From Nitrospinales bacterium (lineage in GTDB: Bacteria; Nitrospinota; Nitrospinia; Nitrospinales; VA-1): a DNA stretch of 64,000 bases. Where the stretch lies: assembly GCA_965262115.1 (NCBI GenBank), contig OZ253496.1:448001-512000 (forward strand), in the 5' to 3' direction. Each line of letters starts with the position of its first letter. Positions within the stretch are counted from its first letter, which is position 1. The position numbers were made by a program, and so were the translations under genes. Below, in pieces: positions 45,903 to 55,736 of the stretch. The notes under the pieces were generated by a model. It had not been told where the DNA came from. It was given only the letters and a program-made list of their open reading frames with translations, and made no database searches.

Positions 45903-46292
45903 ATGATACTCGGACTCGACGACATACCCGGAGGCACACCCCTCGTTTCTTTCCTCACCTGGTTGGTACTATCCGGACTGTTTTATCTGGTCTGCTACCT
46001 TGCGATTCTCAATGTTCTGGATGACCTGACTAAAAACAGCCTGCTAAAAATCCCGGCGATGCTCGGAGCAGCGATTCCTGCGGCAGGGCTGATGGCGATC
46101 TTCCATTACAAACCCTTCGCGCTGGGAGCAGTGATTTGTGTGACCAATTTTTACCGTGTACGAACCATGCAGACTTCAGAGAAATGGAAAAACCACAAAC
46201 CAAACCCCACTCTCTTTTATGTCGCCAGCTACGCTTATATTTTTCTACTGATGGCCCTGGCAATTTATATCCCCACCCTCGACTTTGGCTAA
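45903..46292 (+). CDS. Hypothetical membrane protein
   Basis: 129-aa hydrophobic ORF. Confidence 0.78.
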   Translation: MILGLDDIPGGTPLVSFLTWLVLSGLFYLVCYLAILNVLDDLTKNSLLKIPAMLGAAIPAAGLMAIFHYKPFALGAVICVTNFYRVRTMQTSEKWKNHKPNPTLFYVASYAYIFLLMALAIYIPTLDFG

Positions 46293-46715
46293 TAATCCAC
46301 TTAACTGATTAATTTTTAAATAGTTACTGACATCTTAACGGGTCGGGATTATATTGTTTCCCAGTTTAACCAACATAACTATTTGATTTATAAAATGTTA
46401 CCTATGGTTCTTCATATATTTGAAAGTTCCGAATGTCATCATCAACAGAAGCACGTTACCTCTACCCCCTCTCCGTTGGGGCTTTCTTATATGTCCGAGT
46501 GCATTCCCTGCAAAAAAATGCGGACCTTCCGTTTTGTCCGTGAGGGAAACAGAAAAGAGGACTGGTACTCGCATACATTGCTGCGAATTAATAGGAAAAG
46601 GAGCGAGAACCAATCCAATAAATCAAGAAGGAAAGATGATGGAATCGATAAGGTAGCAATCTGATTATTTTCAAAATCCCCGATAAAAAATTTTATCGAG
46701 AATAAAAAAAACCAA

Positions 46716-47189
46716 CTAGTTCAGGAGTCCTCGACAACGGGCGATATAGGTGTGGTTGATTTCGGCGTGGGGTTGAATTTCGAGGGCTTTTTGAAAACTT
46801 TGAAAACAATGAATAGCTTCTTCGTACCGTCGCAGATCAAACAAACATAGTCCCATCCCATTCAAGGCGCCAAAATGGTGCTGAATCTTTCGTAGCACTT
46901 CTTCACATTCCTTAACCGATTCTTCGTATTGTCCCATGATAAACAGGAGGGTTGCGAGTTTGTTATGCGCTTCAGAGAAACCCGGACATTTCTCGACCAG
47001 GGACCGGAACATTTCAAGAGCTTGCTCGTGTTGCTGACGATCCATCAACCGGGTTCCTTCATTCAGTTCCTTCTCCATCTCAGGCCCCAATTGGCTATGC
47101 CAGAGAATCCATAACCCCCGCGTGGCGTTCTCGCGAATGGAGGGGTCTTCACTCTTCAGGTCTGCCAAGTATTGCTCAGTTTTGTCCAT
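46716..47189 (-). CDS. TPR-repeat protein
   Basis: PGFSEAHNKLATLLF, HFGALNGMGLC, YEEA..FQKALEIQP. Confidence 0.85.
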   Translation of the reverse strand: MDKTEQYLADLKSEDPSIRENATRGLWILWHSQLGPEMEKELNEGTRLMDRQQHEQALEMFRSLVEKCPGFSEAHNKLATLLFIMGQYEESVKECEEVLRKIQHHFGALNGMGLCLFDLRRYEEAIHCFQSFQKALEIQPHAEINHTYIARCRGLLN

Positions 47190-47294
47190 GGTACTAACAA
47201 GTATAGCGGAGAACCTCCGCAGGCGTAATATCATTCATCAGTTCTCATGGACCTGTGATGTCCTTTTCCTTGAACTTCATGCCCCGGAGGGGTA

Positions 47295-47360
47295 TACGCT
47301 TATATCTTTCTACTGATGGCCCTGGCCTTTTATATTCCCACATTGGATTTCAGCGAATAG
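47295..47360 (+). repeat. Diverged duplicate of the 3' end of gene 45903-46292 (att-like scar)
   Basis: 31 of the first 32 nt are identical to 46230-46261; encodes YAYIFLLMALAFYIPTLDFSE* versus YAYIFLLMALAIYIPTLDFG*. Confidence 0.85.
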
Positions 47361-47369
47361 TCTCCACGT

Positions 47370-50300
47370 TCACACCCACTCTTTACAGAGCACTTCTGCC
47401 TGTTCCAGAATTAACTCCGTTGCCTTTTTCTCCATATCAGGAGGATAGCCGTACTGGCGCAAAATGCGCTTTACCATGATTCTGATTTTGGCTCGTGCAT
47501 TTTCACGAAGCGTCCAGTCAATGCTCACACTTTTCCTGACTTTCTTAAGCAATTCCTGAGAAAGAAAACGCAGTTTTTCATCTCCCATAACATCTCTTGC
47601 GCTCCCGTTATCGGCAAGCGCATAGTAAAAAGCCACTTCTTCATCATTAAGGCCCAATGATTCACCACGCTTTTGCGCTTCCCTCAAATCCTTTGCAATA
47701 CGAATCATTTCCTGAATGACTTCAGCGGCTTCAATAGTACGATTTTGGTATTTATTAATGTCTTGTTCTAACATCTCCGCAAATGACCGCGCTTGGACGA
47801 CGTTTTTTCGTGATCGAGTCTTGATTTCGTCATTGAGAAGTTTTTTTAGTAATTCCAAAGCGAGATTGCGCTGAGGCAAATTTTTGACCTCTTCAAGGAA
47901 TTCATCGGACAAGATTGAAATATCAAGCCTTCCCATGCCAGCGGCTTCAAATATATCAACGACCTCTGTCGATGCCACTGCCCGTGAAACAAGTTGTTTG
48001 ATAGCCGAATCCATCTCATCAAAAGTTTTTCCCTTTTCATCACCCGTGGTCTTAACTAATGCTGATCGCACTTCCTGAAAAAAACCTATGTCATCACGAA
48101 GTGCTAAAGCCTTTTCGTGAGGGACTGAAAGCGCAAACGCCTTGCCAAGTGCTGTGACCGCTGGCAGATAACGTTTTTTCCCATCGTCAAGACTCAGCAC
48201 AAACTCCATCGCCCTCATGATGCCTGAGATGCGGTCAGACGATTTGCCTTTAACAATATTCATGTAATCAAATCCGTAAAACATATCCTTGACGATTCCA
48301 TATTTTTCATAAAGGACAGTAACCGCTTGCTCCTGATCAATTGTTGCTGACCCTTTGCCGCCACTTTCCGTATAATTAGCCAGTGCCTTTCTAAGAGAAT
48401 CCGCAAGCCCAAGATAATCGACCACTAACCCGCCCGGTTTGTCACGAAATACTCGATTTACTCTGGCAATAGCCTGCATGAGATTATGACCATCCATGGG
48501 CTTGTCTGCATACATAGTGTGCATGCTCGGACAATCAAACCCGGTTAGCCACATATCCCTGACAATGACCAACTTTAATTCATCTTTAGGGTTTTTGAAC
48601 CGCTTCGCCAAATCTTCGCGCCCCGTTTTGCTTCGAATATGAAGTTGCCAGTCTAAATGGTCGGATGCAGAACCTGACATGACAATTTTCATAATGCCTT
48701 TTGTATCATCATCACTATGCCATTCCGGCTTGATCTTTCTGATAGCCTCGTGCATATCCACACAAACCCGACGGCTCATACAGACAATCAACGCTTTACC
48801 ATCCATGACCTCAAGACGTTTTTCGAAATGCGCCACTAAATCTTCTGCAACCAGATTAACGCGCCTCTTCGCCCCCACCATCGCTTCCAGCGCGGCCCAT
48901 TTGGTACGAAGCTTTTGTTTGCCTGATTCTTCTGCATCTTCAGTGATGTTTTCAAACTCAGGATCAAGCTTTGGTTTTTCATCTTCTTTCAGTTCAATTC
49001 TTGCTAACCGGCTTTCGTAATAGATCGGAACCGTTGCGCCATCTTCCACCGCTCGAAGGATGTCGTATTTGTCTATATAGTCCCCAAACACAGCAGGCGT
49101 ACTGCGGTCATCGTTCTCTATAGGTGTCCCCGTGAAACCTATGAACGAAGCATGGGGAAGCGCATCGTGCAAATGCCTTGCAAACCCATCAATAAAATCA
49201 TATTGGCTTCGATGCGCCTCATCCGCTATGACGACAATATTCTTTCTCTCAGAAAGAAGCGGGTGTGCGTCGCCCTTCTGGTCAGGCATGAATTTCTGAA
49301 TGGTGGTAAAGATGACTCCGCCAGATGCCACCTGCAAAAGCTCGCGCAAATGCAAGCGGCTTCCTGCCTGAGTTGGAGACTGCCTCAGCAGATCCTTACA
49401 GTTGGCAAACGTGCCAAACAACTGGTCATCAAGGTCGTTTCTGTCCGTCATCACTACTAATGTAGGATTGCCCATATCAGGGTGGCGAATGACTTTCCCT
49501 GCATAAAAGGTCATCGACAAACTTTTCCCGCTCCCCTGCGTATGCCAGATAACTCCAATCCTGCGGCCTCCAAAATGGTCCGTGCCGGGGCCATAGTGCG
49601 TTTTTCCCTCTTCTACGGTTAACGATTCGTTTGATTCAGGGAACCTGCCTATCAACTTGCTTTGGTCCGCAGAAATCCCGCAAGCAGAAAAAGTGCAGGA
49701 CAAGGCTTTATTGACCGCCCAATACTGATGATAGGCTGCGCCCTTCTTCTCAATAGTGGCTCCGTCATCCTCAAAAACAATGAAGTTAAGGAGATAACCT
49801 AGAAATCGCCGACGCTCAAACAGTCCGCGAACGGTCACTTCCAGTTCGGGCATACTTTTTGGGGCAAGCACTGTGCCCTCTACCGTCCGCCACGGCATGA
49901 ACCGGTCCCAGTCACTGGTGAGTGTTCCCGTTCTTGCCTGAATACCATCCGAAATCACCAACACTTCGTTGGCTACAAAAAGAGAAGGGATATCTTTCTT
50001 ATAGGTTTGCAGTTGATGGAACGCGCTTTTGACGGTGGCGTTCTCATCCGCCGGGTTCTTGAGATCCATCACAGCCAAAGGCATGCCGTTAATAAACACG
50101 ACCACATCCGCCCGTCTGTTCTTATTGTCTTCAATAACAGTGAACTGATTCAAAGCCATCCAGTCGTTGTTGTCGATATTTTCGAGGTCTACCAGCCAAA
50201 CCTTGACATGCCGGGTTCCGCCATATTCGTCCTTGGCAGGCACCTCGACATCCACGCCATCGGTCAACAACCGGTGAAAAGAGCGGTTGTTGACAATGAG

Positions 50301-50543
50301 GTCCGGAGATTCCGTGCCCGTTATTTTTTTGATGGCTTCCTCAATACCGATGCCGGGAACATCGGGGTTAATACAGGCCAGGCTCTTCCGCAACCGGTCA
50401 AGCAAAAACACTTGCCGATACTCATCGCGTTCCGCATCCGGCGTATCAGGGGCAAGATCAGGACCATGCAGGATGCCATAGCCCAACTCCCCCAGCCATG
50501 CCAGAGTCGCCTCCTCCACAGTGTTTTCGGTGATCTTAGTCAC
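47370..50543 (-). CDS. hsdR: Type I restriction enzyme R subunit
   Basis: [17 protein letters not shown] nuclease, [38 protein letters not shown]. Confidence 0.96.
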
Positions 50544-52198
50544 ACGACCGCCTCGACAAATTTCTCTGCTTCGGGGATGCGGAGTTCCCCTGACAGGAGT
50601 TTAGGAAGGAGGGTGTCTCGTTCAAGGGCTAAAGCTTTAATATCAATGGAACATACTTCTATCTTCTGATCAAAAACTCCAGCCCACTTTTCGAAATTCT
50701 CCACAAGTGCTTTGGAGCACTTAATCCACTTAAGAGCTTTGAAATCCCTTTGGCTGATGCTGCCAAAAACTGTTCCTTCTCCTTCAAACCTGTTGAAATG
50801 TTCTTCTAGTTCCTTCATTGCATAATAGGTATAAGAACGACTTCCAGATTTATGACGCACAGCCCCAACACCCCTACCAATACAACAGTTTTCTAGAGCC
50901 ATATTTACGTCACCCACAGGTGCACGCACGCTTACTAATGTGTCGTCTTTTGAAGCGAACCTCTTTGGCTTTGTGCAATAAATACGGTTCGATGGGTACC
51001 TAAAACCAAAGTCCACTCGGCCTTGAAAGAAAGGCTCCCCTTTGTTATCTTCGTTGTAGGAGTAGCCAGGAGGAGACTGGCCCATTGTCACGTCAAACTC
51101 TTCTCCAGTCGTACTCACTTCCCACCCCTTAGGTATCCAGCCTAATTCTTTGGTGTGTTCGAATTCATTGGGAAAAAGATTTTGAATTTCTTTTGGCAGG
51201 GGTTTGCGGGCATGACCAAGGTTTTTCCGCATGGCGGCTCGTTCTGCTAGTTCTTTGGGTATGGATTTGCCAGCGGCCAAAGCGTTGTCAATAACCGGAT
51301 CAAAATCCACAAACCAGCTTTTGAACAATGCCTGTGCCATGGCTTCCAACGTCTCATTCATCTTGCGGTTCAATTCAATTTTATCGTCCAGCGAACCTAA
51401 GATATGGGCAATTGCGCGTTGTTCGGGGAGAGTTGGCAATGGAACAGGAAAGCGTCCAAGGATTTTTGCGTTTGCTCCCGCTTGTGCCGAACCAGTTTTG
51501 GAGGAATTTACAAAGCCCCACCATTTTGAAGACCTCATGTTGTACCAAGTGAAAAATGGGTCAGCTAAATCAGAATTAATTTTGAAACGAATTAAGTATG
51601 AAGCAAAAACCGTTTCCTCTCTGCCTGTGAAGATATAATTTTCACCGGTACTGTTTCCCGTCCTTGCTACAACAATGTCTCCAAAACTCAACCGATACTT
51701 TTCTAAATCTTTTTCATCAATTGGGCAAAAAGGCACAGTCTTCCAGTTAACAACACCATTTTGGATATCAGTTATCCGCAAGAAATGTGGTCCAACTTTT
51801 TCCGAACTTGCGCTTTCAGTATAGCCATAGGAAACATCCGTGGCCAATTCGGATAATGAAAGCTCTCTCCACCCCTCCAGGACAACCTCACCCATGTCCT
51901 CCTGCAACACCACATGCTCGGCCTTAATATTTTTGCGGAACTTTTCCGGCACTTCATCCCAGACAAACAAGTCCATGCGGAATGGCAGGTTGCTTTCCTC
52001 GAAAGCTTCTTTCAGGTTGGAGACCTGGGGTTTTTGTTCGGGCGTGGTGAAAACCGCCATGTCGAGATCGGACTGCGGACGGGATGTCCATTTAACACGG
52101 GAACCGTAAACCCAAACGATGGTATTAGGAAGATAGCTTCTCAGCAAATCGAGAATAACCTTGCGCTGAGCAGGGGTTATATCTATGCTCACTCCCAT
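50540..52198 (-). CDS. hsdS: Fusion of a minimal nucleotidyltransferase (MNT antitoxin) and a type I specificity subunit
   Basis: aa 1-100: [16 protein letters not shown] = GSX10DXD, plus third Asp in FRMDL. Remainder: two TRDs with [29 protein letters not shown] and [12 protein letters not shown]. Confidence 0.92.
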
Positions 52199-52605
52199 GT
52201 TTCACCACTCAGGGTTTGGTAAAGGCCGATGGCATCGTCGATAAAGTCACCCATCACTTGCAACACCGCCTGCGCATTTTCTCCACTGTAGTCGTGGGCG
52301 GTGCCGATGCGCAAATCGGCGTAAAGCATCCATTGCTCCAAGGTCGAAGCAAACAGGTTATTCTCAAACGCCAGCCGAAACAAGGGTTTGGGGCTGTTGG
52401 GAACCTCGGGAAGACCCAACTCATCCTGCAAATAATGTTTCAAGACCTTCCATATACAGTCATAACAAGTCTCAAAACGCTGGACGACAGACTCTTTAAC
52501 GGCTTCCTGGATCAGGTCTGGCTGGGCTGGGTCCAGCGTTCTATAGTTCTCGTGCTGGAGTTCCAGATGTTTGAGTGACTTCTGAAATTTATCGTATTCG
52601 ATCAT
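52189..52605 (-). CDS. HEPN-domain RNase toxin (HI0074/nucleotidyltransferase substrate-binding family)
   Basis: VQRFETCYD..WK.LK, SPK..FR.A, RIGTAHDY = RX4HXY; stop overlaps the MNT-hsdS start. Confidence 0.9.
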   Translation of the reverse strand: MIEYDKFQKSLKHLELQHENYRTLDPAQPDLIQEAVKESVVQRFETCYDCIWKVLKHYLQDELGLPEVPNSPKPLFRLAFENNLFASTLEQWMLYADLRIGTAHDYSGENAQAVLQVMGDFIDDAIGLYQTLSGETWE

Positions 52606-52608
52606 GGT

Positions 52609-54222
<1,614 letters not shown>

Positions 54223-54481
54223 GGTTCGTTCCAGTCCTAATTATAAATATTGCTGTCCTGCTTCAAGCCTGCTCAAGTGCCTTTCTTCTCACATTGGATT
54301 GTCTATGCCGAATTATGGCAACCGTCATAGTACAGGAAGCCGCTTCCTAATAAAAACCCTAATATAAGCATGAAGCAATACGCCCATCAGAGGCATAGTA
54401 TGCTATTTATCATTTTCTTTTCAATGCCTTAAAAGGCTGGCTTGATTAAATTAAAAACTACTCCAACGCATCCTTAAATGT

Positions 54482-54871
54482 CTAGAGATTTCTTCGTAAA
54501 GCGTTAATGAGTCTTCTGGTTGATCTTCCTGGAGTTTTGCATTCCCAAAATGTCCACCCATTAACTGGATAGTTAGTGATTTGCATTGCCGCACTTGATG
54601 GGGAATCAAACTTTTTTCCGTCAAGGTCTAGTGCACCGTTATCAACCTTGGCGTAATAATTCTCTCCTTTGTGATGTGCATAAAATTCAGTGCCGTGTGG
54701 AAATGAGACTTTTTTCGTAATCCAGGGTTTTCCGTTCGCTAGATCATTGTTGATTTTTATTTTTGATAGGTTCAATAAGTCGCGAAGGACATCGTTGTAA
54801 GTAACCTCCTCCGTTAAACGCCTATTGGTTAACTCCTTAAAAACCTCAAAATCGATTTCAATGGCTTGCAT
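54482..54871 (-). CDS. RAMA/DUF4357-like domain protein with N-terminal RHH/SeqA-N-like segment
   Basis: MQAIEIDFEVFKEL...YNDVLRDLL; FDSPSSAA...VNGWTFW. Confidence 0.75.
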   Translation of the reverse strand: MQAIEIDFEVFKELTNRRLTEEVTYNDVLRDLLNLSKIKINNDLANGKPWITKKVSFPHGTEFYAHHKGENYYAKVDNGALDLDGKKFDSPSSAAMQITNYPVNGWTFWECKTPGRSTRRLINALRRNL

Positions 54872-54890
54872 ATTACTCTCCCAACCTAAA

Positions 54891-54952
54891 ATAGTTAACA
54901 TAGTTTATATTTTAACTATATCAACTATAATACCTTTAATATCAAGTGTCAA
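54891..54952 (-). promoter_or_regulatory. Sigma70 promoter overlapped by a symmetric four-box operator
   Basis: TTGACA (54952-54947)-N17-TATAGT (54929-54924); ATAGTT-N3-ATAGTT-N8-AACTAT-N3-AACTAT at 54891-54928. Confidence 0.8.
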
Positions 54953-55208
54953 TTGTTAGATTAGAAGGCAGAACGGGTACTTTATAGCAAGAAGAGGTCT
55001 ATGGCTAAAACAGGAACGGCAACCACATCGGGGTTTGGGAGCGGTAGTTCTCATAGTCCTCACCAAATTGCTCTTTTAAGGCCAGTTCTTCAAAGTGGAT
55101 TCTGAACTGGAAACCGAACCAGGCACAAAGTGTGCCGAGCGTTCCCCAAATCCATGAGTGGGTGGTGATGGCATAGGCAAGAATCACCAGCATCATCGTT
55201 GTGTAAGT

Positions 55209-55337
55209 GAGACCTTTGCGTAAGTCTATAAAGCAGAAAAGCGAGATGCTTCGACAAGCTCAGCATGACAATAAAAGGCTATTTTGTCATTCTGAAGAGC
55301 TATTGCAACGAAGAATCTTGGGTTATGCAAAGGTCTC
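55209..55337. mobile_element. 129-bp MITE with 15-bp TIRs and 9-bp target-site duplication
   Basis: TIRs gagacctttgcgtaa / ttatgcaaaggtctc; TSD tgtgtaagt at 55200-55208 and 55338-55346. Confidence 0.9.
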
Positions 55338-55736
55338 TGTGTAAGTGGGATGACGCATGCGGCCATGAAGGCCATCGGTTTTCAGGGTCTGTTTTTCGCG
55401 AAAGTCAATGTTGAACTTGAACCGCAAAACCCCCAACTGAACGATAGCCCAGATACGAAATACCGAGCCGACCAGAAACAGGGTTACGACCATGACCCCC
55501 TCCAAAAAAGCTACGGGAGCTTCAGTAGCACGAGAAACAAATGACATTCCCACCAGAGCCATGCAAATCGGTAACACATGTCCAAAGAGCTGTTGGAAAT
55601 ATGCCTTATTGAAGGTACAGTCTTCCGGCCTCTCGGTCAGGACGAAAATGATCATCTCAATAATGCCAAAAATCAAATTGATGAAGGAAACGACCATGAA
55701 TCGTCCAATATTGGCGTCGATCATCCCTAGAGGAAT

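Follow-up and report, generated by a model that had tools for sequence, protein, structure and literature searches.

Class I HepT/MntA toxin-antitoxin (TA) pairs are defined, in the pertinent passages of PMC7641770, by a HEPN protein of family PF01934 or PF08780 that carries an RX4HXY motif and a neighbouring MNT protein that carries GSX10DXD, and the same passages name the physiological trigger of these toxins as open. A second kind of HEPN system is found in EcoprrI, a type IC restriction-modification (R-M) system, whose nuclease PrrC is proposed in part of PMC3710099 to serve as a second defensive layer should restriction be blocked. In Ronin (HsdMS plus RonA) and EcoR22I, as portrayed in part of bioRxiv 10.1101/2023.04.06.535777, a toxin restrained by HsdMS is released by anti-restriction proteins without a need for methyltransferase activity. 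Few cases are known in which restriction is backed up against anti-restriction proteins (PrrC, Ronin, retrons, and PARIS). The present study concerns a 64,000-nucleotide (nt) stretch of a Nitrospinales bacterium genome (hereafter the window; assembly GCA_965262115.1, contig OZ253496.1, positions 448,001 to 512,000), in which a HEPN gene lies inside a type I R-M operon and its MNT partner is fused in frame to the specificity subunit, HsdS. The MNT-HsdS fusion is real and widespread; what is new is a signature of co-adaptation in the fused form, and the trigger that we describe for a guard function is a proposal.

On the minus strand, the operon consists of hsdM, the HEPN gene with its RX4HXY motif, a single 552-aa open reading frame (ORF) encoding MNT-HsdS, and hsdR, all with overlaps or near-zero gaps; the 552-aa ORF (52198-50540) overlaps the 3′ end of the HEPN gene by 10 nt. 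Both class I motifs are present in the pair, GSX10DXD occupying residues 32-46 of the fusion, as in SO_3166/SO_3165 of S. oneidensis, the HEPN-MNT pair of L. pneumophila, and HI0074/HI0073 of H. influenzae. Residues 21-99 match Polbeta/NTP_transf_2 and MntA models, with matches to PF18765 and PF01909, and residues 109-546 match the type I specificity model PDLC03168 from end to end (E 2e-92), with the two target recognition domains (TRDs) and two conserved regions (CRs) expected of a type I HsdS. The closest solved structures are HI0073 for the MNT domain (1no5; E 5e-17, TM 0.86) and HI0074 for the HEPN protein (1jog; E 2e-9), and like the Legionella MNT described in part of PMC11586414, the window MNT has no long fourth helix. 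An AlphaFold2 model of the fusion (predicted local distance difference test score, pLDDT, 84) places an MNT fold ahead of two TRDs and two long helices and resembles both solved HsdS subunits and HI0073. The hsdM, hsdS, and hsdR genes form a single operon, as expected of a HindI-like type I system, and the queries used revealed no other type I system in the genome.

The locus departs from each of its nearest relatives. Unlike the class I pairs, its MNT is the N-terminal domain of HsdS rather than the small stand-alone antitoxin of a two-gene module, has Trp in place of Gly at the position GS+5 (residue 37), and sits inside an hsd operon. It shares with PrrC/EcoprrI a HEPN RNase gene (a predicted RNase in the window) embedded in an hsd operon, but PrrC is an ABC-ATPase-HEPN anticodon nuclease held inactive by interaction with the R-M enzyme, whereas the window encodes a 138-aa HI0074-type HEPN protein without an ATPase and with putative covalent silencing by an HsdS-fused enzyme. 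RonA of Ronin is a 61-aa predicted membrane protein in a system with neither hsdR nor an enzymatic antitoxin; the window has a HEPN effector and an hsdR gene. Outside R-M systems, a 438-aa chain of a CRISPR Cmr complex in PDB entries 9z7q, 9z7v, and 9z7x, known here by its deposited name 'Cmr1-MntA' alone, has an MNT-like stretch at 353-429 (a weak match, E 0.02), which suggests that a CRISPR complex built to the same design has already been under study and is a possible precedent.

The preliminary description of this locus, made from the sequence alone, had proposed the gene anatomy, the motifs, the tethering of MNT to HsdS, and a conserved gene order, all of which are borne out by the ORFs, the profile matches, and the related loci. 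It had also entertained that MNT and hsdS might always be separate in homologues, the fusion being a stop-loss or an assembly error, and had called for a check of read coverage across the junction. The interval 47000-55200 is reproduced with 0 differences by contigs from three runs of one study (X1-X3), which may be the source of the assembly, and the fusion junction is bridged by a contig from a second study (X4; 51399-52238), likewise with 0 differences. A Met and a purine-rich stretch in the window linker are what an assembly error or private stop-loss has in its favour, and that explanation is refuted by the bridging in two studies, by the recurrence of the fusion among homologues, and by the rarity of Met in the linkers of other fusions (4/73). 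An internal restart at the junction is ruled out by the same rarity and by the absence of a consistent ribosome-binding site. The linker has the same length in 61 of the 73 fusions.

A search with residues 1-105 of MNT-HsdS against proteins of 303-966 aa returned 1013 matches, and among the best 120 all had GSX10DXD, 118 had a Methylase_S domain, and 18 had two tandem MNT domains. We then assembled 90 related loci, comprising all 10 genome matches and the best 80 of 454 metagenome matches, of which 46 were fused, 37 free, and seven unclear; the named carriers of the fusion were Nitrospinia, Scalindua/Brocadiaceae, and Bdellovibrionales metagenome-assembled genomes and a Zymomonas mobilis plasmid. 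Gene order was conserved in the fused loci, with HEPN upstream in 44/46 and, where there was enough flanking sequence, hsdM upstream in 29/31 and hsdR downstream in 17/21, as compared with 2/23 and 0/13, respectively, in the free loci, which mostly had no R-M genes nearby. Across 73 fusions, the median identity to the window was 74% in MNT, 86% in CR1, and 16-17% in the TRDs. MNT identity reached 85% or more in 368 pairs, and in 246 of these TRD1 was less than 35% identical; thus, the fusion persists through specificity swapping. On an HsdM tree built with FastTree, the cassette was scattered with 14 changes, at least 11 of them forced. No cassette was present in 45 related hsdM loci from viral contigs, no MNT relative was found in viral contigs, and no HEPN match in a phage collection. 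The HEPN-MNT-HsdS cassette is a mobile accessory of HindI-like operons and not a core part of them. Several loci depart from the usual layout. Two have lost the HEPN gene in a clean deletion that leaves hsdM directly followed by an intact MNT-HsdS gene (L056 and L071; 95-96% identical to HEPN-bearing sisters), four carry a pair of HEPN-MNT modules in succession, either inside a single hsd operon or upstream of it (L011, which has an extra MNT, L020, L026, and L058), and some MNT-HsdS proteins have nuclease-like inserts (DUF559/MTES_1575, GIY-YIG) between their TRDs (P0003, P0043, P0086, and L010).

The catalytic motifs of both HEPN and MNT are intact and under purifying selection. RX4HXY is kept in 44 of 45 HEPNs beside a fused MNT, R99, H104, and Y106 are invariant in 30 HEPNs of fused loci, and G32, S33, D44, D46, and D76 of MNT are invariant in 73 fusions; the median ratio of nonsynonymous to synonymous substitution rates (dN/dS) was 0.12-0.14, from few pairs (six for HEPN, 18 for MNT). 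This invariance of the acceptor Tyr and the RNase motif beside fused MNTs speaks against a quite improbable alternative, in which the change from Gly to Trp at residue 37 retunes MNT to DNA-binding regulation or to some other target (an R-M subunit, a phage protein, or nucleic acid), with HEPN serving as a substrate-binding or secondary partner. The canonical Gly at GS+5 in solved free MNTs, the persistence of MNT-HsdS without HEPN in L056 and L071, and the double MNT domains would suit such a repurposing; the near-identity of the two HEPN-less loci to their HEPN-bearing sisters marks them as recent losses.

Evidence that the fused form is co-adapted came from comparing residues between fused and free pairs on a phylogeny. 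An MNT-only tree was too weak for this (two supported pairs); HEPN and MNT were therefore concatenated for 63 dereplicated rows, leaving out short or missing HEPNs and loci cut by contig edges, and the tree was built without the column under test. Fused and free pairs interleaved on this tree, with 14 changes, at least nine of them forced by supported branches, and a single clade of free pairs was rejected (approximately unbiased test, p-AU 6e-76). Residue 37 of MNT was Trp or Phe in 35/35 fused pairs and in 2/25 free pairs, 18 of the 25 having Gly, and Gly occupies GS+5 in all four solved free MNTs that were aligned (HI0073, 1wot, MntA, and 8xeo). Across eight independent supported contrasts, residue 37 went with fusion in 6-7 and against it in none (sign test p 0.016-0.031). 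Because mean conservation was equal in fused and free pairs (0.703 vs 0.703), the pattern at residue 37 is not one of general relaxation. A further, out-of-sample set came from 401 and 301 genomes, with part of the matches taken and long frames chosen on purpose; in it, W37 was present in 12 of 13 fused MNTs and an aromatic residue in nine of 37 free MNTs. Of these nine, eight fell in a second HEPN clade, and two of the eight lay beside R-M remnants. The HEPN partners in this set were 24-30% identical to the window HEPN. Likewise, the Zymomonas fusion has Trp at residue 37 and a split Acetobacter operon has Gly.

The next outliers after residue 37 were in the HEPN protein, one helix turn apart on helix 5. 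D123 was present in 30/35 fused and 3/25 free pairs, and G127 in 26/35 and 3/25; among 17 out-of-sample free pairs of the same HEPN clade, three had D123 and four had G127. An RNA-level constraint behind these two residues was ruled out, since synonymous codons vary there, and the signal at a further HEPN residue, E138, may come from the overlap of the two genes at the start of MNT. Between a broken fusion (L005) and its fused sister (L052), 15 of approximately 235 sites differed, W37G and G127D among them. On the strength of these alignments, the fused form is co-adapted, with W/F37 of MNT and D123 and G127 of HEPN kept almost only when the proteins are fused, and this adds support for a functional link between the toxin and the R-M system beyond what the preliminary description had offered.

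MNT has been joined to restriction subunits in other ways. In three genomes of the window's genus or family, a HEPN gene precedes an HsdR that carries another MNT, one of Legionella-like type, and eight such clusters were found. These MNT-HsdR fusions (approximately 1045 aa) belong to a different type I family and, together with their HEPN genes, include L155:4039-7577 (minus strand), L156:5123-8682 (plus strand), and L157:2617-6140 (plus strand). They do not have Trp at the position of residue 37. The operon of L155 combines an MNT-HsdR module with a separate HEPN/MNT-HsdS module, in which a third MNT type is joined to a different HsdS. Stop-loss fusion to a following gene may be easy, and this convergence therefore supports tethering only modestly. 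Unfused M-HEPN-MNT-S-R operons also exist, on Acetobacter plasmids and in L098/L159 and L104/L160.

Such split operons are what would be expected if a HEPN/MNT pair had simply landed between hsdM and hsdS and lost its stop, the changes at W37 and in HEPN being structural and toxin control being independent of the state of the R-M system. We consider this unlikely but deserving of weight. The frequent fusion and fission, the many free pairs without R-M neighbours (37/90 loci being free), the absence of the cassette from viral-contig hsdM loci, the dispensability of HEPN in L056 and L071, and the tolerance of a premature stop in the window's hsdM all agree with it, yet it explains poorly why surface residues on a separate HEPN protein are conserved and then relaxed once the fusion is lost, why W/F and the canonical Gly switch repeatedly, why linker length is so narrowly held, and why independent fusions to HsdR exist.

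We instead favour, tentatively and at somewhat short of an even chance, the reading that the locus is a type VII TA cassette tethered to a type I R-M system and acting as a PrrC/Ronin-like back-up guard against anti-restriction proteins that act on HsdS. By the rules of class I pairs, MNT would AMPylate Tyr106 of HEPN and thereby silence the predicted RNase. Because the linker is short and free of restart sites, the antitoxin is part of each HsdS molecule produced, and W37 and the helix-5 face of HEPN may provide contacts, specific to the R-M context, that hold toxin and antitoxin on HsdS. Were a phage anti-restriction protein to bind or destroy HsdS, AMPylation would stop, newly made HEPN would remain active, and the cell would be arrested. 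The simplest use of contacts kept only in the R-M context would be surveillance, as in PrrC and Ronin. A bolder formulation, possible though doubtful, is that HsdS is itself the antitoxin enzyme, its AMPylase keeping a docked HEPN off until DNA mimics or other anti-restriction proteins engage HsdS and shut the AMPylase down, and that together with MNT-HsdR and Cmr1-MntA it would represent a general design in which MntA is mounted on an immune machine. An uncontrolled complex prediction for MNT-HsdS with two HEPN copies scored 0.00 and counts neither way.

In the window, the R-M system itself is probably falling into decay, whereas every motif of HEPN and MNT has been retained. Its hsdM gene is cut 43 codons early by an in-frame TAA, beyond which the tail is still present in frame; the full-length gene is intact in the closest relative (L001) and most others, and only one of 58 other HsdM rows is without the tail (L136, which reaches the end of its locus). 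The tail helix of HsdM binds HsdS. An alternative genetic code is an unlikely cause, as TAA is the commonest stop in the long ORFs of this genome (427/1008). The stop is covered by the runs of study P1 only, possibly the source of the assembly, X4 having no cover there. In addition, the window HsdM has Cys where 57 of the 58 other rows have Phe, and HsdR has an atypical Asp in its nuclease motif, where Glu is the rule.

These lesions bear on the trigger. The preliminary description had supposed that loss of the R-M complex could free the RNase and that the locus could be addictive, and while tethering itself stands, this part is weakened because the N-terminal MNT survives breaks in hsdS (L005, L033, and L035), HEPN can be cleanly deleted (L056 and L071), and the window's hsdM is truncated. 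A strict complex-loss model thus fits poorly with the truncated hsdM and with loci whose hsdS has decayed behind an intact MNT, and a trigger sensed via HsdS is more likely than one sensed via an intact M2S complex. The same decayed loci (L005, L033/L035, L044/L048, and the window) make it improbable that the cassette serves as a stabiliser, requiring continued hsdS translation for survival and so preventing the population from losing an R-M locus that often lies on mobile DNA: the position of HEPN upstream of, and translationally coupled by overlap to, its antitoxin would suit addiction, as would the occurrence of the fusion on plasmids and of the window's R-M block at a variable site where relatives have approximately 2.5 kb of other DNA, but a nonsense mutation or frameshift in hsdS, hsdR, or hsdM leaves the N-terminal MNT unharmed, and a free TA pair would stabilise the block equally well.

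Several observations weigh against the guard reading and the co-adaptation beneath it. The cell survives with hsdM cut short, an unusual HsdR motif, and two undamaged TA motifs, so that if HEPN is expressed and toxic, its silencing needs no intact M2S complex. AMPylation is covalent, and release would need new HEPN synthesis or an eraser. At residue 37, the eight free MNTs of the second HEPN clade keep Trp, the fused locus L211 and at least three fused representatives have Gly, and the L155 fusion has Asn. The helix-5 signature holds only in the HEPN clade of the window, where its out-of-sample test consisted of free pairs only, and MNT Q91 failed as a fusion signature out of sample, being present in 10/17 free pairs. 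HsdM yielded no convincing co-adapted sites (the highest z, 3.0, fell in the tail adjoining the cassette), and a by-eye inspection of part of the HsdS conserved regions revealed no matching signature. The supported independent contrasts number only eight, the ranking of the 90 loci used similarity to a query that itself bears Trp, and in the model of the fusion the pLDDT is below 50 for both the W37 loop (residues 34-41) and the linker.

Full-text literature searches, with subscription papers and REBASE outside their scope, yielded no account of MNT joined to HsdS. The author of the preliminary description knew of no experimental account. The fusion was not found in the accessible portions of PMC10123105, PMC12671221, PMC4621449, PMC12839542, PMC2701414, and PMC13000451. 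The 2013 survey of HEPN proteins reports, in portions of its text, that HEPN clusters with R-M operons and lists fusions of HEPN, not of MNT, to R-M components (PMC3710099); 'HsdS' and 'specificity subunit' are absent from its main text, and its neighbourhood tables and figures may show the architecture. The first 99 positions of the PADLOC model PDLC03138 ('Specificity_I'), labelled only as a type I specificity subunit, match the window MNT (E 4e-22), so MNT-HsdS proteins are already within a public R-M library, and public names of the homologues are plain 'subunit S'. The R-M system characterised in Z. mobilis ZM4, as far as it is described in part of PMC8432527, is a different locus from the fusion.

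A recurrent covalent MNT-HsdS fusion offers a concrete candidate trigger for HepT/MntA, and natural variation supplies ready separation-of-function mutants in W37G of MNT and in D123 and G127 of HEPN. A tractable host locus is available on plasmid pZMOB01 of Z. mobilis ATCC 10988. For annotation, the filing of these proteins as 'subunit S' matters in that a toxin could be unmasked when an hsdS of this kind is deleted in order to raise transformation efficiency. The positions of the features are collected in the table below.

Table. Coordinates of the R-M operon and of its HEPN and MNT features in the window
Feature	Position	Strand	Evidence
hsdM, HindI-like type I methyltransferase, 494 codons then premature TAA (52738-52740)	52738..54222	-	ORF and profile matches
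HsdM C-terminal tail, 42 in-frame codons past the premature stop	52609..52737	-	88% identity to L001 HsdM tail
HEPN toxin candidate, HI0074/PF08780 family, 138 aa	52189..52605	-	PF08780, E 3e-21
RX4HXY motif (R99-H104-Y106), Y106 the predicted AMP acceptor	52288..52311	-	RIGTAHDY, HEPN residues 99-106
HEPN helix-5 residues D123 and G127	52225..52239	-	conserved beside fused MNT, variable beside free MNT
MNT domain, HI0073 type, fusion residues 1-100; G32, S33, D44, D46, D76 intact	51899..52198	-	domain and structure matches
W37, fusion-associated aromatic at GS+5	52088..52090	-	Gly in aligned solved free MNTs
Linker of residues 100-109, short and predicted to be disordered, lacking a conserved internal start	51872..51901	-	model and linker alignment
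HsdS part, TRD1-CR1-TRD2-CR2, conserved regions resembling unfused HsdS	50540..51871	-	profile and AlphaFold2 model
hsdR, nuclease motif with Asp160	47370..50543	-	41/41 matched homologous motifs have Glu

Scans of the locus for promoters and terminators gave chance-level results only, and no tRNA gene was found at the edges of the R-M block. A 68-nt direct repeat (82%; 46230-46297 and 47295-47362) places a second copy of the 3′-terminal part of a small membrane-protein gene at the block's edge and is possibly an insertion scar. Just upstream of hsdM lies a gene for a 139-aa RAMA-like protein (54482-54901), of which the genome holds a further paralogue at 63% identity, and an element of approximately 130 bp (55209-55338), which abuts the end of an ICMT-family gene, has at least seven near-identical copies in the genome and occurs also in relatives.

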